A stretch of DNA of 64,000 nt from Patescibacteria group bacterium (GCA_028715115.1 JAQUSN010000002.1:4944-68943); one strand, 5' to 3'. Positions 3,518 through 58,861 are shown, counted from the stretch's first letter. The notes: generated by a model from the letters alone, not told the origin. Translations and numbers: made by a program.

Positions 3518-3535
3518 GGCTTAGACAGAGAAATG

Positions 3536-5197: not shown

Positions 5198-5228
5198 AAG
5201 GAATCAAAAGGCTCGAGTGTTCGAGGTT

Positions 5229-7618: not shown

Positions 7619-7923
7619 AGGTTTTTGTCTTATTGGTTACTATGGAAAGGAATGACAAAACTGCTCAAAGAGTCCAGAGCAGAGGAGTAGACAACCTGTC
7701 GGTAACTAAGCTTCACTTTTTACTTTGTTATGTTAAGATATAAGCACAATTAATTTGCCTAAACCCATGGATTTCTGTGGGCATGGCAATAAAAACCGGT
7801 AAAGGATATTAAGCTCGTCGTCAGAGCTCCTTTACCGGTCATATCCTCGAAAGGGGGTATGGGTAGCGCAAGCTATCGCTGGCGGCGAGCTTTGTGTTTT
7901 CCGCCAAATAGTAATTTTATTTT

Positions 7924-8778
7924 ATGAAAAACAAGGTTATTAATTGGCTATTTATTCTCTGTCTTTTTCTAGTTTCTTTATCTTTGACTGGCTGTTCAAG
8001 CCAGACCACTAATTTAATAAACCAGCCAACAAACAATGTTGTTAATCAAACTAATAGTCCGACAGAAGCAGCAAACGAGGTGGTGCAAAACCTTCAAAAC
8101 AATGTTGTCATTAACAATAAAGATAATAGTGTGGTGGATAATAATCAAATCCCCGACTATTATTCTGTCACTAAGGTGGTTGACGGCGATACTTTTAAGG
8201 TCTCAATCAATGGCTCAGAAAAAAGCATTCGTTTGATCGGCCTTGATACGCCAGAAACTGTTGACCCAAGAAAGCCAGTTCAATGTTTTGGAGTTGCGGC
8301 ATCAAATAAGGCCAAAGAGTTATTGTCTAGCAAAAAAGTAAAACTCGAAGCCGATTCATCTCAAGGCGATCTTGATAAATATGGCCGCTTGCTTCGTTAT
8401 GCTTTTTTGGAAGACGGTACCTTCTTTAACAAGTGGATGATCGCTAACGGTTATGGTCATGAATATACGTACAATTTGCCGTATAAATACCAAACAGAGT
8501 TTAAAGAGGCCGAGAGATCAGCCCAAACCAATAAATTGGGCTTATGGGCCGACGGCGCCTGTGATAGTCAAGCCAATACACAATCCCCAGTTCCGGCCAC
8601 ACCAGCAGCTACGGGGCATGTTTTTTACACCTCATCTTACTACACCTCTAAAACCTATTATTGTGATACAGATTTGGCATGGAAAAATCTTAGCCCAAAA
8701 TACCTGAAACAGTTTTCAAGCGAAGTAGAGCTATCAAAGGTTTATCCTACCAAGACTCTTCACGAACCATGCAAATAG
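7924..8778 (+). CDS. Thermonuclease (staphylococcal nuclease-like, SNase) lipoprotein
   Basis: Lipoprotein signal ...LSLTGCSS. SNase motifs DGDTFKV...IRLIGLDTPE...YGRLLRY. Confidence 0.8.
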   Translation: MKNKVINWLFILCLFLVSLSLTGCSSQTTNLINQPTNNVVNQTNSPTEAANEVVQNLQNNVVINNKDNSVVDNNQIPDYYSVTKVVDGDTFKVSINGSEKSIRLIGLDTPETVDPRKPVQCFGVAASNKAKELLSSKKVKLEADSSQGDLDKYGRLLRYAFLEDGTFFNKWMIANGYGHEYTYNLPYKYQTEFKEAERSAQTNKLGLWADGACDSQANTQSPVPATPAATGHVFYTSSYYTSKTYYCDTDLAWKNLSPKYLKQFSSEVELSKVYPTKTLHEPCK

Positions 8779-9984
8779 TTATCCGTTTGTTGAGCTATTA
8801 TTTTTAGGTGGTGGCCATGGCTTACTAATCATGCCTCCCTCCTTATTATAATCTATAAGATATTCTCGTGTTTTCTCCTTGCTCTCCATGAGCTCAAGGA
8901 AATGGTTCCAGTCTTCTACCGTTACCACCTCTCCATTTGGACCGACGCTTTTTGAGCTATAGGGAGCACTGATGCAAAAATCAGGATGAATATTTCTCTT
9001 TTCTCTCTCTTCAGGACTTAAATATTGACCGAAATATTTTTCATAAAGCGCTGGTGGATAAAATTCGCGAGTTCGAGGGCCGGTTACTAGTAAATATTCC
9101 TGTAGCCAAATTAATTCATCCGAGCAACTGCTTTTTATTCTTTCAATATCTTCGGGTTTGAATTTCTCCGGCCAAAGGTTTCGATCATTATCATCCAAGA
9201 GGGGATAAATGCAGCAGGCAGCATTGGCAATCCGATTCTGAACAATTTCCCTATAAAGCTTCATAATCAATGATGAATTGTCTAATAGATTGCCCAATAC
9301 GACAATGTTGGTTGATTTATCGCCGGCCGGCATAATCTCATTTTTAAACCATTCGCACATCCTTTTGCCTTCTTTGTAATTTTTCGCGGATTGCCTGTCT
9401 TCCAAATCGTCACAAATAATCAGGTCGGGTCGATGCTGTCCGAATTTTATTCCCCTGATATTTTGCCGTAATCCGGCAGCCATAATCATGGCTCCGTATT
9501 TTTTTAGCAAAATATGGTTTGGCCCCCAATCTTCATGATCTTGACGGAAGCCGCCGAAGTCATTATTTAATAGTTCATTGCTTTCCAGTTCGTATTTTAT
9601 ATTTTCCAGATGAAGCTTGGCTTGTTTTTTGTGCTGACTTAGAATCAGCACAAACTTTTTTTGCGGTTTGCCGATGATTGACCAAATAATGTTCGAAAGA
9701 TTCATGATGGTGCTTTTGCCTGAACCGCGAAAAGCGATTATGTTAACCAATCGATATGAGGGATCTTCTGTGATAGTCAGCATCTGTTTGTGGAAAATAG
9801 CCAAAGGATAGCTTAAATGATCAGCCAAGTAAATTTTTGAAAACCAATAGTGACTTTGCTTGGCAAGTTCTTGTCGGAATCGGCGGCTTGTTTTTATCTG
9901 TTCAAAAATGGTCCCAATCGGCTGGGTCTCGTTCCTTCTTGGCACCAGCTCCGTCTGTTTTTGGCGGGATTCCTGATTTGTCAT
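8779..9984 (-). CDS. Phage terminase large subunit (TerL)-like ATPase/nuclease
   Basis: Walker A AFRGSGKST and Walker B LIICDDLED, with C-terminal acidic nuclease-like motifs. It is overlapped upstream by a TerS-like ORF. Confidence 0.75.
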   Translation of the reverse strand: MTNQESRQKQTELVPRRNETQPIGTIFEQIKTSRRFRQELAKQSHYWFSKIYLADHLSYPLAIFHKQMLTITEDPSYRLVNIIAFRGSGKSTIMNLSNIIWSIIGKPQKKFVLILSQHKKQAKLHLENIKYELESNELLNNDFGGFRQDHEDWGPNHILLKKYGAMIMAAGLRQNIRGIKFGQHRPDLIICDDLEDRQSAKNYKEGKRMCEWFKNEIMPAGDKSTNIVVLGNLLDNSSLIMKLYREIVQNRIANAACCIYPLLDDNDRNLWPEKFKPEDIERIKSSCSDELIWLQEYLLVTGPRTREFYPPALYEKYFGQYLSPEEREKRNIHPDFCISAPYSSKSVGPNGEVVTVEDWNHFLELMESKEKTREYLIDYNKEGGMISKPWPPPKNNSSTNG

Positions 9985-10354
9985 ATTCCTCTTTTGCCAC
10001 TTCCGTGGCTATTTTTAACAATTTAATTTGCTCCGGCTTTAATTCTTCATAATACGCTTCTTTTACTGTGTGCAGTTTCTCGGCATATTGCGAATGGTGA
10101 TTCTTAAGCCAATAAATAATGGCCGTGATATTTCCTTTTTTTATCAAGCTGAGCAACTGACTTTCAGCCATATCGTTGATTAGTGACGATCCATCAGAAA
10201 TGGCATCATCGGCTAATCGGGCAAAGGCTTTATCTTCCTTGCGCCAACGATAATAGCTGCTTCTGTTGAGCCCGACCTTTTCACAGGCAAACTGAACTAT
10301 GGGGACCCTCTTTAGTTGCTCAAGCAGATTTCTTTTTATTTCTTTGGTCTTCAT
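9902..10354 (-). CDS. Phage terminase small subunit-like / HTH DNA-binding protein
   Basis: 150 aa with an N-terminal HTH-like segment (FACEKVGLNRSSYYRWRKED). Position immediately upstream of and overlapping TerL. Confidence 0.45.
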   Translation of the reverse strand: MKTKEIKRNLLEQLKRVPIVQFACEKVGLNRSSYYRWRKEDKAFARLADDAISDGSSLINDMAESQLLSLIKKGNITAIIYWLKNHHSQYAEKLHTVKEAYYEELKPEQIKLLKIATEVAKEEYDKSGIPPKTDGAGAKKERDPADWDHF

Positions 10355-11751
10355 AAAACCTTGTGCGCTTTAACTCCGGTTAGCTTTTCCCATCGGTTCC
10401 GAATAACCTCTGCATAGACGGGCGACTTCTCCATTAGATAGCAGCGACGTTTCATCTTCTCGGCAGCGATCAGTGTTGATCCGCTGCCGCCAAACGGCTC
10501 AATAATTAAGTCATTTCTCTTGGTTAAAACCTTGAGATAGGGGATAAGAACTTCAAGCGGTTTGGTTCCGAAGATAATCCCTTGGCCTGAGCTTTTCTCG
10601 TCGGCGGCCGTATATTCGATATAATCGGTGGGGCAATATTTCTTGCCGGCTTCGTAGCTTTCCCAATGCGGTTTGCCGGAAGTGGCGTAAAGAGCGTTTT
10701 CATATTCCTCTTGCAGTAATCCTTCTTCGGGCCCCAAATTCAAATCAACTTTCCCCTGGGTTCCCACGGCGGCAATATCTGTCTTATTGAAGAATTTATA
10801 TTTAGCTGCAAAGCCCTGGCATCTGTTTGGCACATGCCAAGTAATCGTATTTCTGTATTTCCAGTGTTTCTCTAATTCCAACCAAATAGTTTTAAGATTC
10901 TTGGGATTTTCAAAGACAATAATTGAAAAGTCGGACTTTTGAATCTTGGCAACATTAGCCATCCATTTTTCGGTAAAGTCCGGCGGCAATTCATCTGTTT
11001 CCAGATATTTGCGATCTCGCTTTAAACCAAATCCCTCGATTGCTTCGCCGTGCTTCTTTTTGCCTTTTAAATAATCTAAGAGGTAAGGTGGGTCAGTGAA
11101 ACACATATCTGCACTTTCATTGCCCATTAGCCTCAAGACGTCATTTTCAATAGTTGAATCGCCGCACATTAAGCGGTGATTACCTAATTGCCAAACGTCG
11201 CCCCTTTGAATCTCAATTTGAGAAATGTTTAATTTATCCAATTCTTTCTTTAGATCAAATATTTCTGGGCTTTCGTCAATGCCAAAGATGTTATCCATCT
11301 CTTCCGAAGAGAATCCAACGTCGCCCAGCATCTTTTCGCCAAAATCAGCCAAAATGTTCCAATCAAACTCACCGGTGTTTTTATTGAGGCGAAGATTGAT
11401 TTCTTTCTCAAGCTCTAGGCCTGGGATATCAACCCAAACAATGGGCACGGTGGTAAAGCCCAATTCTTTGACAATCTTTAACCGAAAATTCCCGCCTAAC
11501 ACCACCCCTTTGCGGTTTAACGCTGAATTAACAATTAAAGGATCAATTAGTCCGAATTTAGCAATTGATTCTTTTAGATTTTTGCTTGTTTCATCTGACC
11601 AGACTCGTGGATTATATTCACACGGTTTTAGTTGATCAATTGAAACGTACTCGACCTTTAGAATTGACTTCGCGACAGAAGTTTCCATAGGTATTAAATT
11701 AATGATTAATAAATTAAATAAACAAAAGCGACCCAAAAAAGAATTCATCAA
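10351..11751 (-). CDS. ParB-like nuclease domain fused to DNA methyltransferase (N6-adenine/N4-cytosine, beta class)
   Basis: N-terminal ParB-N-like region, a DPPY motif (MCFTDPPYLLDY) and a C-terminal SAM motif I (IIEPFGGSGST). This is the typical phage ParB-MTase architecture. Confidence 0.8.
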   Translation of the reverse strand: MMNSFLGRFCLFNLLIINLIPMETSVAKSILKVEYVSIDQLKPCEYNPRVWSDETSKNLKESIAKFGLIDPLIVNSALNRKGVVLGGNFRLKIVKELGFTTVPIVWVDIPGLELEKEINLRLNKNTGEFDWNILADFGEKMLGDVGFSSEEMDNIFGIDESPEIFDLKKELDKLNISQIEIQRGDVWQLGNHRLMCGDSTIENDVLRLMGNESADMCFTDPPYLLDYLKGKKKHGEAIEGFGLKRDRKYLETDELPPDFTEKWMANVAKIQKSDFSIIVFENPKNLKTIWLELEKHWKYRNTITWHVPNRCQGFAAKYKFFNKTDIAAVGTQGKVDLNLGPEEGLLQEEYENALYATSGKPHWESYEAGKKYCPTDYIEYTAADEKSSGQGIIFGTKPLEVLIPYLKVLTKRNDLIIEPFGGSGSTLIAAEKMKRRCYLMEKSPVYAEVIRNRWEKLTGVKAHKVL

Positions 11752-22783: not shown

Positions 22784-23133
22784 TGGTGGAGATGGCGGGT
22801 ATTGCACCCGCGTCCGTAGGTTAAGAAATAAAAACACTTACTTTCATATTCTGGTTTGTTTCTCGATCAGAGCGTAAGAACCAGACAAAAACGCTCCAAC
22901 CAGAGCCCAGATTTTCTAAACTACCTGACCGAGGGCGCAATCAAATAGTCGATCCTGCTGAATAAAGCCGAGAGTACTAGCAGGAGTCACGCTCTCGACT
23001 CACTACCTAACAAAAATTAGGCAGTGGCAAATGCAAAGTTATTGGCATTTGTAATTGCGAGAGAATAACGGTAACTCTCAAACGGAAAGCCGTTTTTATT
23101 TCTTGTGAGCCTCGTCAATTTTTAAACATCCCC
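22784..23133 (-). ncRNA. ssrA: tmRNA (ssrA), ~350 nt, candidate tag (A)NNFAFATA
   Basis: The minus strand reads 5' GGGGATGTTTAAAAATTGACGAGG... (compare GGGG...AUUCGACGGG). Its 3' end is tRNA-like: ...GGACGCGGG-TGCAATA-CCCGCCATCTCCACCA. An internal ORF gcc aat aac ttt gca ttt gcc act gcc TAA is present. It lies adjacent to smpB. Confidence 0.85.
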
Positions 23134-47978: not shown

Positions 47979-48077
47979 GTGAGATTTTCCCCATTAAACC
48001 CTTTACAATTTAATTTCTTTATTCTATAATTTTAGAACGTTTTAGACAACTCTCGTTTACACATTTTATCCCCATTT

Positions 48078-48317
48078 ATGCTTGATCATAAAGAAAACAT
48101 TCATGGTTATTTGGTTTATTATGATGACGAGGCGAAGTTGGGCATAGAACATTTGGCTCATGTTTTGAGTTTTGATGAAGCGCGGTCGATGTTTTTAGCC
48201 GCTCATCGTACTTTAGATAAAATAGATTTCGAAGATCGCCTGGGAAGAAACTTTGTTCTTATAGGCAGAATGGATGGCAATTTCGAACTTTATGCACGCA
48301 AAGAAGGATGGTTCTAA
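48078..48317 (+). CDS. Small hypothetical protein
   Basis: 79 aa ORF upstream of tRNA-Lys. No motif was recognised. Confidence 0.45.
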   Translation: MLDHKENIHGYLVYYDDEAKLGIEHLAHVLSFDEARSMFLAAHRTLDKIDFEDRLGRNFVLIGRMDGNFELYARKEGWF

Positions 48318-48332
48318 GTAAAACCAAAATAC

Positions 48333-48406
48333 GCCCCCTTAGCTCAGTGGTAGAGCAGTAGCCTTTTAAGCTATTGATGAAGGTTCGATTCCTTCAGGGG
48401 GTACCA
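48333..48406 (+). tRNA. tRNA-Lys (TTT), CCA encoded
   Basis: gccccct-ta-gctc-agtggta-gagc-a-gtagc-ctTTTaa-gctat-tgat-gaagg-ttcgatt-ccttc-agggggt-a-cca. Confidence 0.75.
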
Positions 48407-48534
48407 AGTAGTGCTAAGTCAAGTGACCGTGAGGGGTCGGCTAAAAATCGACCAAACATTGCCCTTGACTTAATCACCTTAAAAGAAAAACCACGGAATT
48501 TTATCCGTGATTTTTCTATTTTATCTTTACCTTT

Positions 48535-49896
48535 TTACTCCAGATGTATTTTTCTGTCTAGAAGTATTAACTTGCTTTGCAGACAAGTCAGCAATTCTCT
48601 TTTTTCAATCAGCGTTCCTTCTTTTAAGATGTATTTGGCATAGTTCCGGGTATTAATATCAGTATTCAATTTTACTTTATTACTTACTCCTAAGACCCCA
48701 ATTCTGAATTTGTTATATCTGGTCATCTCGTGTTCAATTTTTGCCTTGATACCCAGATCATCTAGATTAACTTTATTAATCATTTCAATTAATTCTTTAA
48801 TCAGGTTTTCTTCATTAATAGCCGAGTTCTTACAATCAATATTTCTGGCCTTGGTACAGCGGTAGTAGACATGGCGGTTGACTCCGCCATCTTTTAATTT
48901 CTTGAATTTCTCGTCAGCCGTAATGCCCGAGCCACAACAGCCGCACTTAATCAGTTTAGTGAAGGCAAATTCTTTGCTCTCGGTCTTGGGGATATAGTGT
49001 TGGTCTAGGGCTTCTTGAACTTTACCAAACACCTCTTTGTTAATAATCGGCGTGTGTTTGCCGGTATACCATTGACTACTCTTGGCAGGAAACTCGAATT
49101 CGCCGTAGTAGAACGTATTTCTTAGCAGCTCATAGACATTGGCAATTGATAGGGGTTTATTGTTTTTAGTCTTAAACCCTATTTCCTGAAACCAGCGATG
49201 AATTTTTCGGCCACTCCAGTTTTCATAAGCTACTTTTTCAAACATTTGTTTGATAATTACCGATCTTTTGGGGTCTAGCCGGCACTGACCCTTTTTATCA
49301 ACATGGCTTTCCATTAGATAGCCAGTCGGGGCCATGTTTGGTCGCCAGCCCATTTCGCATTTAGCTTTTAGCCCTCGTTTTACATTAACCGACTTATTAT
49401 CGTTCTCCAGTTTGGCATGACTACCTAGAATCATTAATAGAAATTTTTCATTTGGGTTGTTGGTAAATTTCTGGCTGTAGGTTTTAATTTCGAGCAACAC
49501 TCCTTGATCCATCAAATCAACCAAAGTTCCTAGGTCGCCGGCATTCCTACTTAAGCGATCCGGCGCCCAGGTTAGAATGGCATTAAATTTGCCACTTCGT
49601 ATCTCCTCAATCATTTGATTGAAGACAGGTCTTTGGCCAACTGCCTTTGATGAATGCGATTCCTTCTTGATCTCAATCACGTTGAGATTGTCGCGTTTAG
49701 CGATTTCTGACATTTCCTTGATCTGGCTATCAATGGAAAGTGCCTGCATTTCATCTTGCTCGGTCGACTTGCGAGCATAAAGGCAGTACTTGATGATAAC
49801 CGGTGTTTGGATTGCTTGCGGGTGTCTACTTAAAGTTGTTGTTTGTTCCATAGGTCTAAGGTTATTGATTAATCCCATGGAACATTGATGACGCAC
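48535..49896 (-). CDS. Large serine recombinase (paralog of 6284-7618)
   Basis: IIKYCLYARKSTEQDEMQALSIDSQ, a recombinase domain, and a Cys cluster CGCCGSG...YYRCTKA. Confidence 0.85.
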   Translation of the reverse strand: MRHQCSMGLINNLRPMEQTTTLSRHPQAIQTPVIIKYCLYARKSTEQDEMQALSIDSQIKEMSEIAKRDNLNVIEIKKESHSSKAVGQRPVFNQMIEEIRSGKFNAILTWAPDRLSRNAGDLGTLVDLMDQGVLLEIKTYSQKFTNNPNEKFLLMILGSHAKLENDNKSVNVKRGLKAKCEMGWRPNMAPTGYLMESHVDKKGQCRLDPKRSVIIKQMFEKVAYENWSGRKIHRWFQEIGFKTKNNKPLSIANVYELLRNTFYYGEFEFPAKSSQWYTGKHTPIINKEVFGKVQEALDQHYIPKTESKEFAFTKLIKCGCCGSGITADEKFKKLKDGGVNRHVYYRCTKARNIDCKNSAINEENLIKELIEMINKVNLDDLGIKAKIEHEMTRYNKFRIGVLGVSNKVKLNTDINTRNYAKYILKEGTLIEKRELLTCLQSKLILLDRKIHLE

Positions 49897-50039
49897 CTGG
49901 TCAGGGAGTCCAGGCCCTATTGTAGATAACTAATTCTTCATAAAGTTATCCACAAATTTCTATTGATAAAAATTAGTTTTGGTTATATATTCATAATATC
50001 AAGGTCGAATTATTAATTAATAAATAAACATTTAAAATT

Positions 50040-50303
50040 ATGCCAAGATTTAATAGTAGTGGTCCTGCTGGTTATGGCCCTCGGACTGGCTGGGGCTTGG
50101 GTCCTTGTGGCGCCGGAATGGCTTGGCGCAGAGGCGGAAGGTTTAGCCGCGGTTTTGGTTGGAGGAGATTTTGGGGTTATTATCCTACTCCTACTCAGAC
50201 TAAAAAAGAAGAAATAGAAACTCTTTCAGAAGAAGTTATTATTTTAGAAGAGGAACTCAAGACTATTAAAACCAGATTGGCCGAACTCAAAGGACAAAAA
50301 TAA
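50040..50303 (+). CDS. Gly/Arg-rich small protein with C-terminal coiled coil (DUF5320-like)
   Basis: PRFNSSGPAGYGPRTGWGLGPCGAGMAWRRGGRFSRGFGWRR...EELKTIKTRLAELKGQK. Confidence 0.5.
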   Translation: MPRFNSSGPAGYGPRTGWGLGPCGAGMAWRRGGRFSRGFGWRRFWGYYPTPTQTKKEEIETLSEEVIILEEELKTIKTRLAELKGQK

Positions 50304-50322
50304 AATTAAACAAGAAAACTTT

Positions 50323-50658
50323 ATGAAAATAGCAGTAAGTTCGATAAGGGAAACTATTGACAGTAGTGTTTCTGATATTTTTGGAAGATGTCCTTATTTT
50401 ATTATTGCTGAAATTGAAAGCCAGAAAATAGAAAAAACCGAAGCAATAGAAAATAAAAACACAGACCAAATGAGTGGTGTTGGTATTTCAGCTGCTCAAT
50501 TAATGGCAGAAAAAAATATCGATACCGTAATCACAGGTAATGTGGGTCCGAGAGCCTTAGATGTGTTAAGGCAATTTAATATTGATGTTTATTACGGAAA
50601 TGGAACGGTAAAAGAGATTTTACAAGATTTCATAAATGGAAAACTTAAGAAAATTTAA
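50323..50658 (+). CDS. NifB/NifX-family (dinitrogenase FeMo-cofactor-binding domain, PF02579-like) protein
   Basis: MKIAVSS...DIFGRCPYFIIAEIE...VITGNVGPRALDVLRQFNIDVY. Confidence 0.7.
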   Translation: MKIAVSSIRETIDSSVSDIFGRCPYFIIAEIESQKIEKTEAIENKNTDQMSGVGISAAQLMAEKNIDTVITGNVGPRALDVLRQFNIDVYYGNGTVKEILQDFINGKLKKI

Positions 50659-50660
50659 AA

Positions 50661-51008
50661 ATGAAAATTGTAATTCCGACTAATAAGAGAAATGGGCTTG
50701 ACGATAAAGTGGCCGACCATTTTGGTCGTTGCCCGACTTATACCTTTCTTAATGAAGAAGGCGAGATTGTTGAGATAATAGACAATACCAGCGAACATAT
50801 GGACGGCGTTGGTCTGCCGCCGGAATTGATGAAAAAACACGGAGCGAACATTTTACTTTGTAAGGATCTTGGACCGAGGGCTTTAAATTTATGTCAAGAA
50901 TTAGGTATAGATGTATATGTTTGTCGAGCAGAAACAGTAAGAGATGTTTTTGAAATGTGGAAAAATAATATAATTAAAAAAGCAAGTATAGGGGATACCT
51001 GCAAATAA
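50661..51008 (+). CDS. NifB/NifX-family (PF02579-like) protein, second copy
   Basis: MKIVIPT...HFGRCPTYTFLNEEGE...LLCKDLGPRALNLCQELGIDVY. Confidence 0.7.
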   Translation: MKIVIPTNKRNGLDDKVADHFGRCPTYTFLNEEGEIVEIIDNTSEHMDGVGLPPELMKKHGANILLCKDLGPRALNLCQELGIDVYVCRAETVRDVFEMWKNNIIKKASIGDTCK

Positions 51009-51024
51009 TATAAATAGTAAATTT

Positions 51025-51888
51025 ATGAAAATTGCGATTACTGGTGGAAAAGGTGGGGTGGGAAAATCAATGGTAGCGACTTCATTAGCAGTAGAATTTG
51101 CAAAACGAACCAAGACAATGCTGGTAGATGCTGATGCGGAATGTCCAAATGATCATCTCCTACTTTCCGTAAAAAGAAAAAAATATATAACAGTTTTTCA
51201 ACCGATTCCTAAATGGAATTTTAAGAAGTGTACAAAATGCGGTAAATGCGCTTCCGTTTGCAAACAAAATGCCATTGTTTTCACTAAAGGAAAATTTCCC
51301 GCTTTTGTTAAAGATGTTTGTATCGGATGTAAGGCATGTATTGTTACTTGTCCAACTGGCGCGATAACGGAAACTAAAAAAGAAATCGGGAAAATTTATA
51401 CTGGGAAAAATTATAATGTTAATTTAGTTTCTGGAGAGCTTAAATTGGGAGAATTGGCTTCCGGTGAGGTGGTGGCTAAGGTAAGAAAATATGCTGATAA
51501 AATTAATAAAAAAATAAAAGCTGAAATAACGATTATTGATTCTTCGCCGGGAATTGGTTGCCCTGTAATTGCTTCTTTAGTTGGCACTGACTATATTGTC
51601 GGCGTAACAGAACCGACGCCGTCAGCCCTTTTTGATTTGAAAAGGGTTTTATATTTGGCTGAACACTTTGGGATAAAGCGCGGCATAGTTATTAATAAAT
51701 TTGATCTTGAAGAAAGTTTTTATTCTGAGATAGAAAACTTTGCCAGAATAAATAAAATTCTAATCCTAGGAAAAATTCCTTACCGAAAAGATTTTGTTAG
51801 GTCAACCGTTAAAATGAAACCAGTAATTGAAATAAATCCAGTTTATAAAAAGTTATTTCAAGCAATTATTAAAAAGATATTAGAATAA
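51025..51888 (+). CDS. MinD/Mrp-like P-loop ATPase with 4Fe-4S ferredoxin-type Cys motifs
   Basis: Deviant Walker A ITGGKGGVGKS, plus CTKCGKCASVC and CIGCKACIVTCP. Confidence 0.75.
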   Translation: MKIAITGGKGGVGKSMVATSLAVEFAKRTKTMLVDADAECPNDHLLLSVKRKKYITVFQPIPKWNFKKCTKCGKCASVCKQNAIVFTKGKFPAFVKDVCIGCKACIVTCPTGAITETKKEIGKIYTGKNYNVNLVSGELKLGELASGEVVAKVRKYADKINKKIKAEITIIDSSPGIGCPVIASLVGTDYIVGVTEPTPSALFDLKRVLYLAEHFGIKRGIVINKFDLEESFYSEIENFARINKILILGKIPYRKDFVRSTVKMKPVIEINPVYKKLFQAIIKKILE

Positions 51889-51894
51889 ATTATT

Positions 51895-53046
51895 ATGAAT
51901 TTAAAATCTATTTATAAAAAATTTATAATTATTTTTATTTTAACCGTTTTTTGTATTATTTTTTCAATAAAAGTTAATGCTCAAAATAATCTTAATAATC
52001 AAAATGATGTTTCTTTACATATGTTTTACGGTCAGGGATGTCCTCATTGCAGTAAGTTAAAATTATTCTTGGATAACATGAGGAACAAATACTCGTCGTT
52101 GAAAATATATGAACACGAAGTTTATCAGGATCCTGAGGGAAGAAAGTTATTTGAACAAATGTCCCAGGCCTTTAATACTCCCATAAAAGGGGTGCCAACA
52201 GTATTTATTGATGATAAAGTAATTATCGGATTTAGCAATGAAATAGGAGATTCGATAGAAAATGAAATAAAAAGATGTTTGGAAGCCGATTGCATTGATC
52301 CTGAATTAATGGTGAATAAATCATTCCCAGACAATTTTGGTAAAAACGAAATTGTAAAAAAACTTACAATTCCCATTGTTGTTTCTGCGGCGGCAGTAGA
52401 CGCAATTAATCCTTGTGCTTTTGCGGTTTTAATAATTTTGATGACCGCTGTTTTGTCTATAAGCAGTAGGAAAAAGGCTTTAAATTTTGGTTTAGCTTTT
52501 ACAGCATCGGTCTATATTTCATATTTCTTAATAGGTCTTGGTTTATTTTCAGCCTTGCAGATTAGCGGACTTAGTCACAAGTTTTATATAGTAGTAACAA
52601 TTTTAGCTTTTATTGTTGGCTTATTGAATATTAAAGATTATTTTTGGTATGGAAAGGGGTTTTTAATGGAGATTCCACTGAGATGGAGGCCAACTATAAA
52701 AAGAATATTAAACAGCGTGACAACTCCTTTTGGAGCTTTTATTGCTGGTTTTGCCATATCTTTATTTGAATTACCTTGTACGGGCGGACCATATATAGTT
52801 ATCTTGGGCTTATTGGCAAAAGAAGTTACCAGGAGTACGGGAATTTTTTATTTACTTATCTATAATTTGGTTTTTGTATCGCCATTAATAATACTTTCCT
52901 TAATAATTTATAAAGGTTTATCTACTGCCAGCAAGTTAGAAGCAATAAGGCAGAAAAAAATAAAATTGTTGCATTTAATAGCTGGAATACTGATGCTTGG
53001 AGTTGCGACGGCTATGGTCATATCTTTGATCAAAGGTTGGGTCTAA
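51895..53046 (+). CDS. Thioredoxin-fold (CxxC) domain fused to DsbD/CcdA-type thiol:disulfide transmembrane domain
   Basis: Signal/TM segment, then FYGQGCPHCSKL, then a polytopic domain with the conserved Cys in INPCAFAV and ELPCTGGPY. Confidence 0.7.
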   Translation: MNLKSIYKKFIIIFILTVFCIIFSIKVNAQNNLNNQNDVSLHMFYGQGCPHCSKLKLFLDNMRNKYSSLKIYEHEVYQDPEGRKLFEQMSQAFNTPIKGVPTVFIDDKVIIGFSNEIGDSIENEIKRCLEADCIDPELMVNKSFPDNFGKNEIVKKLTIPIVVSAAAVDAINPCAFAVLIILMTAVLSISSRKKALNFGLAFTASVYISYFLIGLGLFSALQISGLSHKFYIVVTILAFIVGLLNIKDYFWYGKGFLMEIPLRWRPTIKRILNSVTTPFGAFIAGFAISLFELPCTGGPYIVILGLLAKEVTRSTGIFYLLIYNLVFVSPLIILSLIIYKGLSTASKLEAIRQKKIKLLHLIAGILMLGVATAMVISLIKGWV

Positions 53047-53071
53047 TTAATAATGAAAAATAATAACCGAA

Positions 53072-54121
53072 ATGAAAGAAAAAATAGCTAAAATTTCAAT
53101 ACTAACTAACGTGTTTTTAGCCGGAAGTAAATTAGCGGTTGGCTTTATAACTGGTTCTGGCGCTATTTTTGCTGAAGGTTTTCATTCGGGAATGGATGTA
53201 TTAACCTCGGCGATAAGTTTTGTCGGCATTAAAATAGCCAAAAAGCCCATCGATCAAAAACATCCTTATGGCCATTATAAATTTGAAGTTTTGGCCGGAT
53301 TAATAATAACTATTGTTCTGTTCGGAACCGGTTTATTTATTATATTTGAGGCGATTCACGAACTTCAGAGCCCTTCTCCCGCTGCAATTGGATACTTGGC
53401 ATTAGGTACGATGTTAATTTCAGCTGTGATTAATGAGATAATGGCGAGATTGAAGATTCATTATGGTAAAGAAGAAAATTCCGTTGCTTTATTATCAGAT
53501 GGATTTCATTCTCGAATAGATGTTTACGCTTCGCTAGTCGTTTTAGCAGGATTATTTTTGACTAAATACTGGGTTTATGTTGATTCAGCTTTGGCCCTAT
53601 TAATCGGTTTATATATTATTAAAGAATCATTTTCAATTGGTAAAGAAGCGGTTGATTCTTTGCTTGATGTTTCAGCTGGCGAAAAGATAGAAGAAAAAAT
53701 AAAAACAATAATTAAGACGCAGAATATTGAGATCTCATCCTTAAAAACTCAAAAAAAGGGTTCAGCCATTACCGCTAATATGGAAATAAAATTACCCAGT
53801 AATTTGAGCGTAGAAGAAGCGGTAAGAACCTCCGACAATTTGAGAGAAGAGTTAATAAAAGAAATTGAAAATCTTTCTTATGTCGCCATTCAGATCAAAG
53901 GTCATGAAGTAGAGACCGGATTTTATAAACCGGCTTTTGGTCAAAGTTTCGGTTGGCAAAGGAAAGGAAAATTTAGGAAAGAAATTAAAGAGGCAAAAGG
54001 AGGTGGACCCGGTGGTTATTGTGTTTGTCCAAAATGTGGTTATAAAATTCTTCATGAACGAGGCATTCCTTGTTTGACATTTGAATGTCCGAAGTGCAAA
54101 ATTAATTTAATTAGAAAATAA
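53072..54121 (+). CDS. Cation diffusion facilitator (CDF) transporter with C-terminal Cys4 zinc ribbon
   Basis: 6 TM. CDF motifs FAEGFHSGMD and HPYGHYKFE. A C-terminal CVCPKCGY...CPKC. Confidence 0.8.
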   Translation: MKEKIAKISILTNVFLAGSKLAVGFITGSGAIFAEGFHSGMDVLTSAISFVGIKIAKKPIDQKHPYGHYKFEVLAGLIITIVLFGTGLFIIFEAIHELQSPSPAAIGYLALGTMLISAVINEIMARLKIHYGKEENSVALLSDGFHSRIDVYASLVVLAGLFLTKYWVYVDSALALLIGLYIIKESFSIGKEAVDSLLDVSAGEKIEEKIKTIIKTQNIEISSLKTQKKGSAITANMEIKLPSNLSVEEAVRTSDNLREELIKEIENLSYVAIQIKGHEVETGFYKPAFGQSFGWQRKGKFRKEIKEAKGGGPGGYCVCPKCGYKILHERGIPCLTFECPKCKINLIRK

Positions 54122-54122
54122 T

Positions 54123-54404
54123 ATGGTTAGACCATTAAAACCAAGAAGAGTATTATTCGACCCCAATGTAACTTATTTTAAACCACAGGCAGTGCCTCTC
54201 TCAATATTAGAAGAAGTAGATTTGGGTGTAGACGAGCTGGAGACTTTACGACTTTGCGATTACAAAAATTTAGAACAAATTGAAGCGGCCAAGAAAATGA
54301 AAGTTTCTCAAAGCACTCTTCAACGAATACTAACATCAGCCCGCAAAAAAGTTGTTGAAGCTTTAATTGAGGGAAAGGCAATAAAAATTAGAAAAAATTT
54401 ATAG
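54123..54404 (+). CDS. DUF134 family DNA-binding protein
   Basis: MVRPLKPRRVLFDPNVTYFKPQAVPL... matches DUF134 (RRV.F.P....FKP). Confidence 0.65.
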   Translation: MVRPLKPRRVLFDPNVTYFKPQAVPLSILEEVDLGVDELETLRLCDYKNLEQIEAAKKMKVSQSTLQRILTSARKKVVEALIEGKAIKIRKNL

Positions 54405-54508
54405 CCAGGTATTCTTGTAAATTTAATTGACCTTTATCACAGAAATAAAAAAGATTTTAATTAATCTTTTTCTTGTTATTATAATTATTTTTTGTTATTA
54501 TTAACAAT

Positions 54509-54760
54509 ATGAAAGAAGAATTGACTCTTATTGATTTAAAAGAAAACCAAGAAGTTGAAATTATTTCTGTTGTCGGTGGACAAATGGTCACTAAAAGATT
54601 GGCTGATTTAGGATTAGTTTTCGGGACTAAAATAAAAATTTTAGGAAAAGCCCCATTTTGGGGACCAATAGAAATTGAGGTTTTGGGTTCAAAATTAGCT
54701 TTAGGCAGAGGGATAGCCTCTAAAATTTTAGTTAAAATTTTAGCCGAGAAACATGGCTAA
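54509..54760 (+). CDS. feoA: Ferrous iron transport protein A
   Basis: 83 aa SH3-like FeoA domain (LKENQEVEIISV...RLADLGLVFGTKIKIL). Confidence 0.8.
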   Translation: MKEELTLIDLKENQEVEIISVVGGQMVTKRLADLGLVFGTKIKILGKAPFWGPIEIEVLGSKLALGRGIASKILVKILAEKHG

Positions 54761-56690
54761 AGAAGGAAAATTAAATATAGTTTTGGCCGGAAACGCTAAT
54801 ACCGGGAAAAGCGTGATTTTTAATTACTTAACCGGTCTCCATCAGCATTTGGGTAATTGGCCAGGGAAAACAGTAGAGAAAGCAGAAGGAACTTTGTGTT
54901 ACAAAGGATACACTATTGATGTTTTAGATTTGCCAGGAATTTATTCTCTCGCCACTTATTCAATGGAAGAGTTAGTTTCAAGAGAATACATTGCCTCTCA
55001 GAAATCAGATTTTGTCGTGAATGTCGTAGACGGTACCAACTTAGAGAGAAACTTAATTTTTACTTTGCAACTTTTAGAATTAGAGCGACCAACCGTTTTA
55101 GCCTTGAATATGGTGAATTTGTTTAAAAAAAAGAGAATAGATATTAATATTGAAAAATTAGAAGAAATCTTAAAAATTCCCGTGGTGCCGGTTGCAGCCA
55201 TTTATGGTAAGGGGATAACAAAAATTTTAGATAGAGGTATTGCTTTAATAGAATCGAAAAGGGTAGGAAATCAGAGCAATCTAAAATACGGAAAAGAAGT
55301 AGAAGAGCAGATTGAAAAACTTATCAGCATGATGTCCAATCTTGAACTTTCCTATTCAAAAAGGTGGTTGGCCATAAAGCTTTTAGAAAAAGATAAAGAA
55401 GTTGAAAAATTAGTCAGAAATAAAGCCCCCGCCATATTAGAAAAGGCAAAAGAATTAATTTCTTATATTGAGAAAATTCATGGGCATGACTCATCTATTG
55501 TCGTCGCCGGCGAGCGTTGCCATTTGGTTTCAGACATAATTCAAAGTGTACTAAGAATAACCAAATTATCGAAAACAAGCTTCACTGAAAAATTAAACTC
55601 GATAACCAGCCATAAAATTTGGGGTTATCCTGTTTTAATTTTAGTCTTATTTTTAATGTTCGGATTCATTTTTAAATTTGGCGACTGGTTTTCCTCGTAT
55701 TTTATAAAGATATTTCCCAACGTTCAGCTATGGTATGAAAACTTTCTCGGTAATTCAGTTTTAGCTTCGTTGATTTGGGCAGGAATTGAAAGTGTTTTGG
55801 GTTTAATCATGATCGCTATTCCTTATATTATTCCCTTTTATTTTGTTTTATATTTTTTAGAAGATTGCGGATATTTGGCCCGCATTGCTTTTTTAATGGA
55901 CAATTTAATGCACAAACTTGGCGTACATGGTAAGGCCTGTATCCCATTGCTTCTTGGTTATGGTTGTAATGTTCCGGCCTGTCTTTCTTGCCGCATTATG
56001 GAGACTAAAAGGGAAAGATTTTTGACAGGATTTTTATCCACCCTTATTCCTTGTAGCGCCATCACGGTTGTTATTTTAGGATTAGTAGGAAAATTTGTCG
56101 GTATAAAATGGGCCCTTGCTTTATATTTATTTAATATTTTAATTATTTTTATTATAGGAAAATTGGCTTCCAAAATTTTACCAGGCGAGCCGACAGGGCT
56201 TATTATGGAAATGCCAGACTATAGAAAACTACATTTTAGAACAATATTTCTACAAACTTGGTTCAGGTTAAAAGATTTTCTTTTTATCGCCGGCCCTTTA
56301 GTGATTATCTCCGGAATAATAATTAAAGGACTTTATTTAGTTGGTTGGCTGGCGGTGATTGCTAATTTTTTAAGCCCCGTCACTGTAAAATGGCTCGGGT
56401 TGCCAGTTCTAACTGGAATTTTATTGATTTTCGGCATTTTGAGAAAAGAATTAATTTTGGTTATGTTAGCTACGCTATTAGGAACCGCTAATTTTGCTCT
56501 AGCTTTGAGTCCTGTCCAAATGATTACCTTGGCGTTAATTACCATGTTTTATATTCCCTGTGTAGCCACCATTGCTGTTCTTCGACGAGAATTTGGCTGG
56601 AAAAGAGCTTTGGGAATTACCATCTTTAAAATATTTTTAGCTATTTTGTTGGGCGGAATAGCTTTTAGATTATTGAGTGCATTTTTATAA
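54753..56690 (+). CDS. feoB: Ferrous iron transport protein B
   Basis: N-terminal G-domain GNANTGKSVIFN and DLPGIYSL, plus a polytopic membrane domain. 645 aa. Confidence 0.9.
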   Translation: MAKEGKLNIVLAGNANTGKSVIFNYLTGLHQHLGNWPGKTVEKAEGTLCYKGYTIDVLDLPGIYSLATYSMEELVSREYIASQKSDFVVNVVDGTNLERNLIFTLQLLELERPTVLALNMVNLFKKKRIDINIEKLEEILKIPVVPVAAIYGKGITKILDRGIALIESKRVGNQSNLKYGKEVEEQIEKLISMMSNLELSYSKRWLAIKLLEKDKEVEKLVRNKAPAILEKAKELISYIEKIHGHDSSIVVAGERCHLVSDIIQSVLRITKLSKTSFTEKLNSITSHKIWGYPVLILVLFLMFGFIFKFGDWFSSYFIKIFPNVQLWYENFLGNSVLASLIWAGIESVLGLIMIAIPYIIPFYFVLYFLEDCGYLARIAFLMDNLMHKLGVHGKACIPLLLGYGCNVPACLSCRIMETKRERFLTGFLSTLIPCSAITVVILGLVGKFVGIKWALALYLFNILIIFIIGKLASKILPGEPTGLIMEMPDYRKLHFRTIFLQTWFRLKDFLFIAGPLVIISGIIIKGLYLVGWLAVIANFLSPVTVKWLGLPVLTGILLIFGILRKELILVMLATLLGTANFALALSPVQMITLALITMFYIPCVATIAVLRREFGWKRALGITIFKIFLAILLGGIAFRLLSAFL

Positions 56691-56691
56691 T

Positions 56692-56755
56692 AAAATGAGA
56701 CATATGATCTGTACCCCAAAAAGTGGACACATCGTGTCTCATTTGTCTCATTTTG
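56692..56755. repeat. Palindromic repeat copy B1 (AAAATGAGACAT - 30 nt - GTGTCTCATTTGTCTCATTTTG)
   Basis: The arms form a perfect 10-bp inverted repeat (aaatgagaca / tgtctcattt). It starts 2 nt after the feoB stop. Confidence 0.55.
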
Positions 56756-56791
56756 CCCGAAACCCTTTATTTTATCTACCTCTCAATTTTT

Positions 56792-56826
56792 AAAATGAGA
56801 CACTACTTTTTTACCGTGTCTCATTT
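56792..56826. repeat. Palindromic repeat copy B2 (AAAATGAGACAC - 12 nt - GTGTCTCATTT)
   Basis: Perfect 11-bp inverted repeat. Same family as B1, A and C. Confidence 0.55.
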
Positions 56827-57014
56827 ATATAACCAGACCGAGAGGGGTCATTTTCGTCCTTGACCGATCCCCAAAGAACCCTTATACTGATTGATAGTTA
56901 TACGTCTCAGACCGACATGGGGTATAGGCCTTCTCCGCCAACTGGCGGATATGGACTACGAGTTAATTTGAAAATCATCAGCTCTCGACTTGTCTTGCAA
57001 AGCTCAATAGAGCG

Positions 57015-57043
57015 AAGCGGGATTCCTTCGGAGGGGTACCAAA
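57015..57043 (+). other. Degenerate partial copy of the tRNA-Lys 3' half (candidate attR remnant)
   Basis: gaagcggGATTCCTTCggaGGGGTACCAAa versus tRNA-Lys gaaggttcGATTCCTTCagGGGGTACCAAg. Two identical blocks of 9-10 nt in the same order. Confidence 0.4.
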
Positions 57044-57133
57044 CAAAGTCATTGGAGGCAATCAAAAGAGTCTTGATATAGAACTCTTTTTAGTATATAA
57101 TAATTTATAGATTAATATCGTAATAAAATTTAT

Positions 57134-57262
57134 ATGGCACAAAGAGCAAAAAGAGATAATGCAGTCGGAAAGCACAAAAAGTCACACTCGCACAAGACCA
57201 AAAAGAGATTAGAGATCAAGCGATTAATGCTTGAAGCAAGAAAGAATAAAAAACACAGATAG
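57134..57262 (+). CDS. Small highly basic protein (42 aa; ribosomal-protein-like composition)
   Basis: MAQRAKRDNAVGKHKKSHSHKTKKRLEIKRLMLEARKNKKHR, followed by a hairpin/T-run. It is below the ORF-track size cutoff. Confidence 0.3.
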   Translation: MAQRAKRDNAVGKHKKSHSHKTKKRLEIKRLMLEARKNKKHR

Positions 57263-57412
57263 AAGCTGATATATCCTTAAGACCTAAGGACATGCAAAAC
57301 AAAAGGACAAGGAGTCTGCATTTTGCCTAAATTAATTATAGTAATATATCTTTAATCTTAAAAAGATTATAATTTATATTATTTATTGTTTTTTTAAGTA
57401 AAAGGGCAGAAG

Positions 57413-58123
57413 TTGATTAAAAAATATTTTATGAAAAAAATATTACTAATCATTATTTTATTTATCATTGCCGCAGTAATTTTATTTTTAGTACGATATT
57501 TTTTAATGCCAAAACAACTCCAGCCGGTTTCAAATACAAATCAGTCACTGGCGATAATCAACAATTCCTCTAATCCTGCGCCTTTGCCGAATCATATTCT
57601 AACGATGTCTAATTTTCAGCCGCCCCTTGATAGAGCAGGTGAGCGGGTTACGAAGAAAAACTTTGGTATTTATATTACTCCGCAAACTTCACCGGTCCAG
57701 CCGGAAAGATTTGCTGGCTATCATACTGGCGCTGACTTTGAAATATTTCCCGAAGAAATCAACATCGACGTGCCGGTTAAAGCAATTTGTTCTGGCGATT
57801 TAAAATTAAAAAAATCGGCTAGTGGTTATGGTGGTGTGGCGGTAGAATCTTGTTCTTTAAACGGCCAGTCATTCACAATAATTTATGGGCATTTAAAATT
57901 AGCGAGCATCAGCTCTAAGGTCGGGAATAGTATTAAAAGCGGCGATATAATCGGCGTTTTGGGTGCCGCTTATAGTCCAGAAACCGACGGCGAAAGAAAA
58001 CATTTGCATTTAGGAATTCACCGAGGAACCGCCATTAATATTTTGGGCTATGTTCAAAATAAGGCCGATTTATCCGCCTGGACTGATCCTTGTTTGTATG
58101 TTTGCCCCGCAGTGAAAATTTAA
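57413..58123 (+). CDS. M23 family metallopeptidase (LytM-like)
   Basis: N-terminal TM segment. HTGADFEI (HxxxD) and HLHLGIH (HxH). Confidence 0.8.
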   Translation: MIKKYFMKKILLIIILFIIAAVILFLVRYFLMPKQLQPVSNTNQSLAIINNSSNPAPLPNHILTMSNFQPPLDRAGERVTKKNFGIYITPQTSPVQPERFAGYHTGADFEIFPEEINIDVPVKAICSGDLKLKKSASGYGGVAVESCSLNGQSFTIIYGHLKLASISSKVGNSIKSGDIIGVLGAAYSPETDGERKHLHLGIHRGTAINILGYVQNKADLSAWTDPCLYVCPAVKI

Positions 58124-58235
58124 TGGTTCTTAAAACTGCGTTTTGCGACCACGACAAGCGTCTAGCTAAAATGTTATCGATATATTAAATTATTATTTAT
58201 TTTTCGAACCCCAAGCAGTATCAAATTTCTACTTC

Positions 58236-58245
58236 GGGGGGGGGG
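58236..58245 (+). repeat. Homopolymeric G10 tract immediately upstream of a TTGCCA -35-like hexamer and the ECF sigma gene
   Basis: acttcGGGGGGGGGGttgccataattaaat lies ~38 nt upstream of the ATG at 58283. Such a run is unusual in a ~35% GC background. Confidence 0.6.
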
Positions 58246-58282
58246 TTGCCATAATTAAATATTTTTATATATTATATTTAGC

Positions 58283-58861
58283 ATGATAGGCCAAGATATA
58301 AATTTAGTGCGGCAATATCTTAATGGCGATGAACAATCGCTAGAGATTTTGATTAAAAAATACCTTAAACAGATTTATGGTTTTGTCTATCGTTATACAA
58401 ATAGCGCTTCAGAGACAGAAGACATAACACAGGAGGTCTTTTTGCGGATGTGGCGAAATATTAAAAAATTTGATCAAAAGAAAAATTTTAAAACCTGGCT
58501 ATTTGCCATTGCTAAAAACGCAGCTATTGATCATTTCCGAAAATACCGCCTGGCAACAGGTGAAAGAAAAGCGGTGCCTTTTTCGAACTTTGAGAATGAA
58601 GACGGCAGCAATTTAATCTTTGATACTTTAGCTGACCTTGGCCCCACGGCTCACGAAATTTTCGAAAGAAAGAATTTAGTCCAAATTATTTCTTTAGCTG
58701 TGGAAAAACTCTCCGAAAAATACCAAACCGTCCTTTCTCTTTATTATCACAAACAATTAAATTTCCGGGAAATTGCCGAGCAACTTAATCAATCTATTAA
58801 TACGGTGAAAAGTAATCACCGCCGAGCTATTATTGCTTTAAAAAATATCCTATTAAAATAA
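58283..58861 (+). CDS. RNA polymerase ECF-type sigma-70 factor
   Basis: Sigma region 2 (ITQEVFLRMWRNIKKFD...FKTWLFAIAKNAAIDHFRK) and region 4 HTH (LNFREIAEQLNQSINTVKSNHRRA). Confidence 0.85.
   Translation: MIGQDINLVRQYLNGDEQSLEILIKKYLKQIYGFVYRYTNSASETEDITQEVFLRMWRNIKKFDQKKNFKTWLFAIAKNAAIDHFRKYRLATGERKAVPFSNFENEDGSNLIFDTLADLGPTAHEIFERKNLVQIISLAVEKLSEKYQTVLSLYYHKQLNFREIAEQLNQSINTVKSNHRRAIIALKNILLK

Follow-up and report, generated by a model that had tools for sequence, protein, structure and literature searches.

Layout of the locus

A gene for a large serine recombinase (LSR) lies beside a tRNA-Lys gene in a 64,000-nucleotide stretch of DNA (the window) from a Patescibacteria group bacterium, and beyond it follow a cluster of iron-related genes and a degenerate copy of the same tRNA. 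We read the interval between the tRNA and this copy as a candidate genomic island. The source organism belongs to the candidate phyla radiation (CPR, or Patescibacteria) and is an ultra-small bacterium with a tiny genome. Its DnaB is at most 69% identical to those of species representatives, all of which are Patescibacteria metagenome-assembled genomes (MAGs), and the window sequence is also present in the MAGs GCA_028686935.1 and GCA_028713815.1. Along the plus strand, the order is tRNA-Lys, the LSR gene (on the minus strand), a nine-gene iron/Fe-S/cation-diffusion-facilitator (CDF)/FeoAB cluster, two hairpins and the tRNA-like fragment. Each feature named in a preliminary description of this DNA was found where it had been placed, and the gene calls proved accurate when compared with the results of ARAGORN, Rfam and Pfam.

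The tRNA-Lys(UUU) gene (48333-48406, plus strand; found by ARAGORN and by the Rfam tRNA model with 76 bits) encodes its CCA and is the presumed integration target, on the side of the left attachment site (attL). It and the LSR gene (48535-49851, minus strand) face each other with their 3′ ends across a gap of 128 nt, from 48406 to the LSR stop at 48535. The recombinase, 438 amino acids long when counted from ATG, is intact and carries the Pfam domains Resolvase (E = 3e-22), Recombinase (1e-15) and Zn_ribbon_recom (1e-9) in the expected order, and the YxRxS catalytic motif (Y25, R27 and S29 from the ATG) is invariant in an alignment of 23 homologues. By these domains and this motif, 48535-49851 is a predicted large serine recombinase. 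The closest solved structures are those of the SPbeta YokA/SprA integrases, with the YokA match spanning residues 25-379, and the other top match is the TP901-1 integrase. The gene had been described earlier as directly adjoining tRNA-Lys, which is correct, and as ~60% identical to the other LSR of the window (6284-7618), for which we measure 56%.

Family-wide association of the recombinase with tRNA genes

The LSR has more than 8000 homologues, and the matches listed are 68-82% identical and named from Parcubacteria, Nomurabacteria, Staskawiczbacteria and Minisyncoccales; for comparison, DnaB is ~60-69% identical to species representatives in a separate genome scan. Loci of the family, designated here by L numbers, were gathered through exact-protein look-ups, a metagenome scan and a scan of IMG/VR. 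In the closer homologues, drawn from independent contigs, a convergent tRNA gene nearly always lies 90-300 nt past the LSR stop, an arrangement seen at more than 14 loci. The linked tRNA is that for Lys in L094, L096, L098 and L210, for Gln in L102, L104, L121, L136 and L185, for Glu in L103 and L155, for Asp in L139, for Asn in L123 and for Trp in L130, with Ser as a possible further case. When the count is made on non-redundant loci whose sequence continues for 400 nt or more beyond the LSR stop, a convergent tRNA is found less than 400 nt past the stop in 7 of the 10 loci that are at least 58% identical, and in 6/69 of the more distant family members; the chance level, derived from a background of 0.053 tRNA per kb, is ~1%. 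The tRNA that adjoins the window LSR, tRNA-Lys, also adjoins its homologues in L096, L210 and L098, and its host context varies, being DnaB/RecR in L096 and L210 and a DnaJ/DnaK operon in L098. Association of this LSR with tRNA 3′ ends is thus supported as real and family-wide, and the linkage at the level of the family is the most interesting result of the analysis.

This association extends to the sequence that separates the tRNA from the LSR. The post-tRNA spacer (48407-48517) consists of a motif, TAGTGCTAAGTCAAGTGACCGTGAGG, within a hairpin at 48411-48477 (fold z = -4.3), followed by a bidirectional terminator at 48484-48517 whose stem shows compensatory changes. It is conserved together with the LSR in L094, L096, L210 and L098, and it is missing after tRNA-Lys genes that have no LSR, and the junction between LSR and tRNA is therefore a trait of the family.

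On the other side of the gene, an invariant motif (49887-49930) was delimited by BLASTN ends and by a multiple alignment. Its layout, found in 18 loci, is GATGACGCA-N8-GGGAGTCCAG-N7-TGTAGATAAC, and it lies 40-80 nt before the LSR start codon; it also occurs at 7650-7700, upstream of the first LSR. The BLASTN matches of the window to L096 and L094 both stop at 49913, and conservation in the multiple alignment fades past GTAGATAAC (~49930), which together mark the end of a conserved LSR module. A GTG at 49896 is unlikely to be the LSR start, because 49887-49913 is conserved non-coding motif. The motif (GATGACGCA-N-GGGAGTCCAG-N-GTAGATAAC) is conserved above the coding level, and its variable flanks can pair around GAGTCCAG. 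Possible identities are an operator, a structure of the 5′ untranslated region or a recombination site.

Several related loci contain extra tRNA copies, without the 5′ acceptor strand, between the host tRNA and the LSR (L094:11430-11545, L102:2830-2935, L104:11280-11580 and L121:1540-1770). These remnants end in CCA and adjoin the LSR, and the truncated copies of L094 and L102 have a GC-rich hairpin inserted at the D-loop. Two tandem units of ~105 nt are present in L104, and both L104 and L121 show tandem units composed of the motif plus a T-arm/acceptor part. In L102, an intact tRNA-Gln is followed by a second copy with a host-like middle and a foreign acceptor strand and CCA, and this foreign end joins the LSR-linked motif directly. 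The remnants in L102, L121 and L104 look like scars of repeated integrations, and on sequence comparison the related loci favor elements that would bring a tRNA 3′ end with them.

The far end of the interval

The 444-nt non-coding stretch 3′ of feoB contains the two palindromic repeats noticed earlier, which are strong hairpins (56691-56755 and 56793-56826; stems AAAATGAGACA...TGTCTCATTTT; fold z = -4.3 and -6.8) and probably act as bidirectional terminators. The stem word AAAATGAGACA/TGTCTCATTTT also occurs at 6138, just 3′ of the first LSR, and at 14838, and hence at three gene ends. Because the word recurs in this way, the hairpins after feoB are best seen as members of a reused terminator family and not as features of an attachment site.

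Farther downstream lies the candidate right end of the interval, a degenerate tRNA-Lys copy without the 5′ acceptor strand (56990-57046, plus strand). Its core GATTCCTTCGGAGGGGTACCAA (57022-57043), compared with GATTCCTTCAG-GGGGTACCAA of the tRNA, is identical in 20/22 columns, with 1 mismatch and 1 gap, and outside tRNA genes nothing in the window matches the tRNA 3′ half better. The score of 17 was reached by 0/300 dinucleotide-preserving shuffles of the 10 kb downstream, for which the mean was 12.1, the standard deviation 1.2 and the maximum 16. With a gapped alignment, the similarity reaches ~50 nt farther in the 5′ direction and, on the other side, a few bases beyond the CCA; the fragment comprises a part resembling the D-arm and anticodon region, followed by the T-arm and the acceptor 3′ strand with CCA. 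A second comparison used the pseudo-tRNA that lies close to the LSR in L094, a truncated tRNA-Lys copy beside a recombinase 82% identical to that of the window. Here the fragment region scores 34, and shuffles give 22.8 +/- 2.3 with a maximum of 30 (z ~4.8). The two sequences share CGAAG and a disrupted T-loop, and a rare palindrome, CCGCCANNTGGCGG, lies near both; a rare GC palindrome, CCGCCAACTGGCGG, is found at 56935-56948, 45 nt upstream of the far-end copy. The tRNA-Lys-like sequence reported earlier near 57015-57043 is therefore statistically supported.

The presumed host flank starts with an AT-rich hairpin and T-run (AAAAGAGT...ACTCTTTTT; 57064-57101, plus strand), which was recognized by eye in a direct reading of the sequence and which falls under the GC threshold of the terminator scanner. 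Overlapping this hairpin is a strong, near-consensus sigma-70-like promoter, TTGATA-17-TATAAT (11/12 matches), that precedes a small basic open reading frame (ORF) of 42 amino acids (57134-57262, plus strand). This ORF, defined by translation and called as a gene in the Logan contigs L082 and L083, is the first gene of the right flank, and genes assigned by Pfam to an M23 peptidase and an extracytoplasmic function (ECF) sigma factor come after it. The fragment, the AT hairpin with its T-run and the promoter look as if a tRNA transcription unit had originally ended here.

The iron module

Nine co-directional genes on the plus strand, from DUF5320 to FeoB, fill most of the interval, and each was confirmed by Pfam. 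The first encodes a DUF5320 protein (50040-50303; PF17253), and it is followed by two NifX/NifB-C-like genes (50323-50658 and 50661-51008; Nitro_FeMo-Co, PF02579) and by a MinD/ParA-type P-loop ATPase with an inserted 2x[4Fe-4S] ferredoxin motif (51025-51888; CbiA, ParA and Fer4). The next product (51895-53046), previously named thioredoxin-DsbD, is a membrane protein whose glutaredoxin/thioredoxin-fold domain is borne out (Glutaredoxin, 30 bits), whereas its DsbD-like transmembrane part matches DsbD_TM with only 20.7 bits, under the cut-off of 27.1. The CDF transporter (53072-54121; Cation_efflux and ZT_dimer) ends in a Cys-rich, zinc-ribbon-like tail, CVCPKCG...CPKC (pattern CxCxxC...CxxC), read directly from the sequence. 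A small DNA-binding-type DUF134 protein (54123-54404; PF02001) precedes feoA (54509-54760; FeoA) and feoB (54753-56690), the last gene of the module. In FeoA and FeoB every Pfam domain lies above its cut-off, including the N-terminal GTPase (FeoB_N), the helical domain (FeoB_Cyto) and Gate/FeoB_C, and the pair is a predicted ferrous iron transport system.

The same neighborhood of Feo with NifX-like, MinD-Fer4, DUF134 and CDF genes, known from anaerobes and CPR, is matched here in both content and order. The order DUF5320-NifX-NifX-MinD/Fer4-CDF-DUF134-FeoA-FeoB recurs in other CPR contigs at 57-85% identity. DUF5320 is also the first gene of the modules in L205 and L208; compared with the copies in these two loci, the Nitro_FeMo-Co genes are 59-77% identical, the MinD/Fer4 ATPase 83-85% and the CDF transporter 75%. 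Unlike these other CPR modules, the present one has an extra glutaredoxin/DsbD-like gene, which is found in neither L205 nor L208, and an adjoining LSR; no LSR was called in the sequence available upstream of the recurring modules. The module adjoins a tyrosine integrase in L207 and lies between Y1 transposases in L208, and in contrast to both of these loci no YibE_F gene follows feoB here.

The iron module is compositionally atypical and foreign to its flanks, with a GC content at third codon positions (GC3) of 0.267 compared with 0.357 +/- 0.046 for 50 other window genes (p = 2e-5). The best non-self match of its FeoB among 5.8 billion proteins is 72% identical, whereas DnaB is 86-88% identical in sister lineages, and the sisters therefore probably lack an orthologous feoB. 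For this window, an island origin would suggest that the only visible Feo system of the organism is accessory, not core.

Origin of the interval

Our preferred reading, to which we give a probability of roughly 0.5, is that ~48407 to ~57043 is a mosaic island in which an LSR module is joined to an imported iron module, which ends at a decayed tRNA-Lys copy and which is probably old or fixed. The island would have been made, or at least seeded, at the tRNA-Lys 3′ end by an LSR of a CPR-wide, tRNA-associated clade. Its first part would be a 1.5-kb recombinase module consisting of the post-tRNA spacer, the LSR and the invariant upstream motif to ~49930. The second would be a self-contained metal-homeostasis cassette, DUF5320 to FeoB, of a kind common in CPR genomes and derived from a lower-GC3 source. 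The decayed copy at 56990-57046 would be the distal end, with the terminator-like hairpin and the next host gene's promoter beyond it. As we picture the process, the LSR would recombine a site on the element with one that lies either within the 3′ part of the tRNA gene or at it. The 3′ terminal segment of the tRNA would come from the element, so that the tRNA could stay functional, and the old or mimic 3′ segment would stay at the far junction. Serine recombinases exchange strands at a 2-bp overlap, and long repeats are neither needed nor made; the far-end tRNA-like sequence would thus be either the displaced native 3′ part or a target-like arm of the element. In favor of this reading are results observed directly: the anatomy, the tRNA linkage across the family, cargo that varies between loci, the shared BLASTN end at 49913, the break in composition, the recurrence of the iron module in other CPR contigs and the statistically supported fragment. 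The crossover position, the joint arrival of LSR and cargo and any present-day excision are matters that we infer. We regard the island as probably old, or fixed in this population, and not as actively moving.

Several results weigh against this reading. An unoccupied junction of tRNA-Lys with the small basic ORF, which the preliminary description proposed to look for in relatives, was not found among the few relatives available. A DnaB-based genome scan for such a site reached only relatives that are at most 69% identical, with synteny limited to DnaB-RecR. Exact-protein look-ups of the flanking sp79 and sigma factor genes returned only members of the same population, all with the island, and a metagenome scan with sp79 gave no match. 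For the sigma factor homologue P0122 (78% identical), the contig begins inside the M23 gene and the junction is not covered, and the only LSR-free tRNA-Lys seen (L002) is distant and has a non-syntenic right flank. There was also no polymorphism within the population across six samples. Contig breaks at 48375-48377 were considered as a sign of polymorphism and rejected: the same contig also breaks inside tRNA-Arg, and the breaks are explained by tRNA k-mers shared across species. No candidate for a recombination directionality factor was recognized by Pfam among the island genes.

In the two closest relatives, the sister lineages represented by L096 and L210, the LSR is likewise found at the tRNA-Lys/DnaB locus, and there it is 78-82% identical and DnaB/RecR 79-88%, a near-equal divergence. 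Because the locus is shared and the divergence is like that of core genes, the LSR may be an old resident that was inherited vertically, and a neutral, displaced fragment of such age should not remain identical in 20/22 positions. Synteny with L096 is lost at the opposite edge of the shared 5-kb block as well, so that the break at the LSR is weak evidence when taken alone. At the far end, an inverted copy of the post-tRNA spacer motif did not rise above shuffles, and a direct GACCGNGAGGGGTC match at 56837 is not significant alone (~0.15 expected by estimate). In 11 other family loci linked to a tRNA, a search of 4-10 kb gave no tRNA repeat at the far end. Finally, the GC3 of the LSR (0.44) is above the host mean and that of the cargo (0.27) below it, a split that argues against one long-standing unit whose parts travelled together.

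Many of these observations fit a different account, in which only the 1.5-kb LSR module (48407 to ~49930) targets the tRNA or is an ancient resident there. The iron module would then be a separate matter, either present downstream beforehand or acquired on its own, and the decayed tRNA copy would be the relic of an earlier, unrelated integration. That the BLASTN matches to two relatives stop at 49913, slightly short of the motif end at ~49930, accords with this, as do the occupancy of tRNA-Lys/DnaB common to the window, L096 and L210 with its host-like divergence, the difference in GC3 between LSR (0.44) and cargo (0.27) and the occurrence of the iron module without an LSR elsewhere, beside the tyrosine integrase of L207 and the Y1 transposases of L208; moreover, the tandem tRNA remnants of L104 and L121 indicate that these sites gather scars. 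We consider this account, the main rival, less likely than the mosaic reading; against it, no tRNA fragment or other junction signal is present just past 49930, many LSRs of the family belong to multi-gene, prophage-like elements on their 5′ side, and the iron module fills the space from the LSR module to the fragment with only non-coding sequence left over.

Other accounts concern the nature of the fragment itself. It might be a tRNA-mimicking arm of the attachment site carried by the element (attP) and not the displaced end of the host gene, with crossover at or just past the tRNA 3′ end and the island boundaries as in the mosaic reading; the imperfect repeat would then reflect the similarity of attP to the target site (attB) and not a duplication. 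Serine recombinases need no long identity, and the imperfect fragment resembles the L094 pseudo-tRNA about as well as the resident tRNA, both having CGAAG, a disrupted T-loop and a nearby CCGCCANNTGGCGG palindrome; 5′-truncated tRNA copies with an inserted GC hairpin recur beside the LSR in L094 and L102. In the host-integrated L104, however, such copies are found between tRNA and LSR instead of at the far end, the copy in L102 has the look of a former hybrid tRNA, and no free element with an intact attP was found: a single-protein scan of viral contigs gave nothing, and pattern searches gave no match or one chance match. We judge this variant to be improbable. That there is no island at all, with the tRNA-like stretch being fortuitous or unrelated, the iron cluster native and the recombinase a lone domesticated or selfish gene, seems very improbable indeed. 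In its favor are the shortness and degeneracy of the fragment, the lack of an empty site and of polymorphism in the six samples, but 0/300 shuffles reach the observed score, the L094 alignment gives independent support (z ~4.8), the GC3 shift has p = 2e-5, and the family is linked to tRNA genes far more often than chance would predict.

Returning to the mosaic island, its bearing on the mobility of ferrous-iron uptake is limited. The idea that this is a horizontally mobile trait is plausible, and present-day mobility is not demonstrated, given that no empty site was found, that the 11 other loci show no far-end tRNA repeat and that LSR and cargo differ in GC3.

Comparison with known integration systems

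The Yersinia high-pathogenicity island lies in a tRNA-Asn gene and carries an iron-uptake system. More generally, islands of tyrosine integrases in tRNA genes follow a recognized (Islander-type) pattern (PMC4383910, PMC7192596), and the present locus resembles them in having an integrase by an intact tRNA, metal-acquisition cargo, a putative partial copy of the tRNA 3′ end at the far side and an atypical composition. It differs from them in that the recombinase is an LSR and the host belongs to the CPR, that a sporadic distribution is unsupported (no empty site having been found), and that no excisionase or directionality factor was seen among the island genes. Its repeat is also degenerate, with 1 mismatch and 1 gap in the 22-column core and more further 5′, and it may be a relic or an arm of attP. 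To call the arrangement the classic signature of integration into a tRNA 3′ end, as had been done, was thus an overstatement: that signature belongs to tyrosine integrases, and for serine recombinases a 2-bp overlap is enough.

Among LSR elements (SPbeta SprA/YokA, A118, TP901-1, Bxb1, phiC31 and SCCmec Ccr), the likeness consists of the three-domain architecture, the catalytic serine motif and the position of the recombinase at the edge of the element. Characterized LSRs target protein-coding or intergenic sites, whereas the present clade is tRNA-linked; it is also compact (431-444 amino acids), and its similarity to characterized LSRs remains remote (E ~1e-9). Tyrosine integrases classically land in tRNA genes; for serine integrases, the use of such genes has been reported only in a few unverified computational cases (PMC7192596). 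In that TIGER/Islander study (Mageeney et al. 2020), 14/297 serine integrase (S-Int) cases were assigned to t(m)RNA genes, a use described as previously unreported and in need of proof (PMC7192596). Like those cases, the use of a tRNA gene by a serine integrase is inferred computationally here; unlike those singletons, it extends over a whole, very large CPR clade, with at least six tRNA identities (Ser being a possible addition) and with tRNA remnants. The locus is likely a tRNA-site island with a serine, not a tyrosine, integrase, in a CPR host.

A broader proposal, which we put forward tentatively and with somewhat more doubt than assurance, is that the CPR harbor a clade of compact LSRs specialized on tRNA genes, with six or more tRNA identities, each of which follows a subclade of the LSRs. 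The elements would bring their own CCA-bearing tRNA 3′ end, so that the target stays functional, and repeated hits would leave arrays of truncated tRNAs interrupted by hairpins. The slot on the recombinase side would swap CPR accessory modules for defense, diversity-generating retroelements (DGRs) and metal homeostasis, including FeoAB. If this is true, it would be the main system of tRNA-site integration in a radiation for which tyrosine-integrase islands are the textbook expectation, and the search strategy for CPR genomic islands would change. It would also help explain how minimal cells exchange modules for ferrous-iron uptake, Fe-S handling and defense, and it would provide compact integrases with universally conserved natural attB (tRNA) sites, which are relevant to genome engineering.

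Variable genes and other observations

The genes on the 5′ side of the LSR differ from locus to locus: AlwI restriction-modification genes and methyltransferases in L094, HsdM and a DGR in L096, and ArsP/ArsR, a P-type ATPase and a fluoride riboswitch in L098. In another 14 loci, genes for DNA methyltransferases, terminases and reverse transcriptases predominate. The fluoride riboswitch (L098:8060-8124) is just upstream of a major facilitator superfamily (MFS) transporter gene (L098:6756-8024, minus strand), and the metal- and ion-resistance cargo of L098, beside a 73%-identical LSR at tRNA-Lys, is a second ion-homeostasis cargo for this type of island.

A DGR is also present in the window itself, at 2056-6023. 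It comprises a reverse transcriptase gene (2056-3105, minus strand), a 117-amino-acid ORF (3129-3482, plus strand) that occupies the position of the bAvd gene of L096 and is compared with it by position only, a template-like repeat at ~3536-3660 and a variable-like repeat at ~4095-4200. The variable repeat ends a GC-rich (55-57%) target-gene block without a Pfam match, and the DGR at ~2.0-6.0 kb thus accounts for the GC-rich block of the window. It is homologous to the DGR in the tRNA-Lys/LSR island of L096 (L096:2800-4872), and the same cargo therefore occurs beside different LSRs in different genomes.

The first LSR of the window (6284-7618) is accompanied by an RNA of the orphan Rfam family LOOT (RF03000) at 7756-7877 (plus strand), which is 138 nt upstream of the gene and divergent from it. 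With a model built from 7 copies, LOOT was detected in 29/100 family loci (among them L094, L104, L106, L107, L110, L112, L127, L136, L140-L149, L154, L157, L158, L165, L173 and L184), nearly always on the strand opposite to the LSR and either 0.14-0.23 kb or 1-10 kb from its start. Conservation runs ~40 nt beyond the Rfam model (CTGGYGGCGRGCTTTGTGT), and most of the genes that separate LOOT from the LSR encode DNA methyltransferases, ParB fusions, terminases or restriction-modification proteins. No account of a link between LOOT and LSRs was found in the papers available. LOOT was considered as the distal boundary of the elements and rejected, because phage-like and methyltransferase genes occur on both sides of it and it is often only 140-230 nt from the LSR start. 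The far end of the tRNA-Lys interval is not a degenerate LOOT either: Rfam gave no hit there at E <=10, and the 7-copy custom model, run over 48000-58500 with filters off, gave a best match of 8.8 bits (E 0.26) and no plus-strand match at 56900-57050. The CCA encoded by the tRNA-Lys gene was also set aside as a sign of a foreign tRNA 3′ end; it is uninformative, with 3/6 window tRNAs encoding CCA.

Near the first LSR and its LOOT (7924-11751) are genes for a staphylococcal-nuclease-domain protein, two proteins without a family match and a fusion of ParB_N with an N6_N4 methyltransferase, the last being the commonest gene type between LSR and LOOT in related loci. Because this fusion lies beside an LSR and LOOT, the region ('Island 1') looks like a member of the same family of prophage-like elements. 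Several predicted viral contigs of IMG/VR carry two LSR genes of this family 5-40 kb apart (L141/L169, L143/L151, L152/L177, L176/L180, L178/L181 and L202/L203); this mirrors the pair of LSRs that lie 42 kb apart in the window. The window also contains a tmRNA gene at 22784-23133 (minus strand), which scores 109.6 bits with Rfam and was not reported by ARAGORN.

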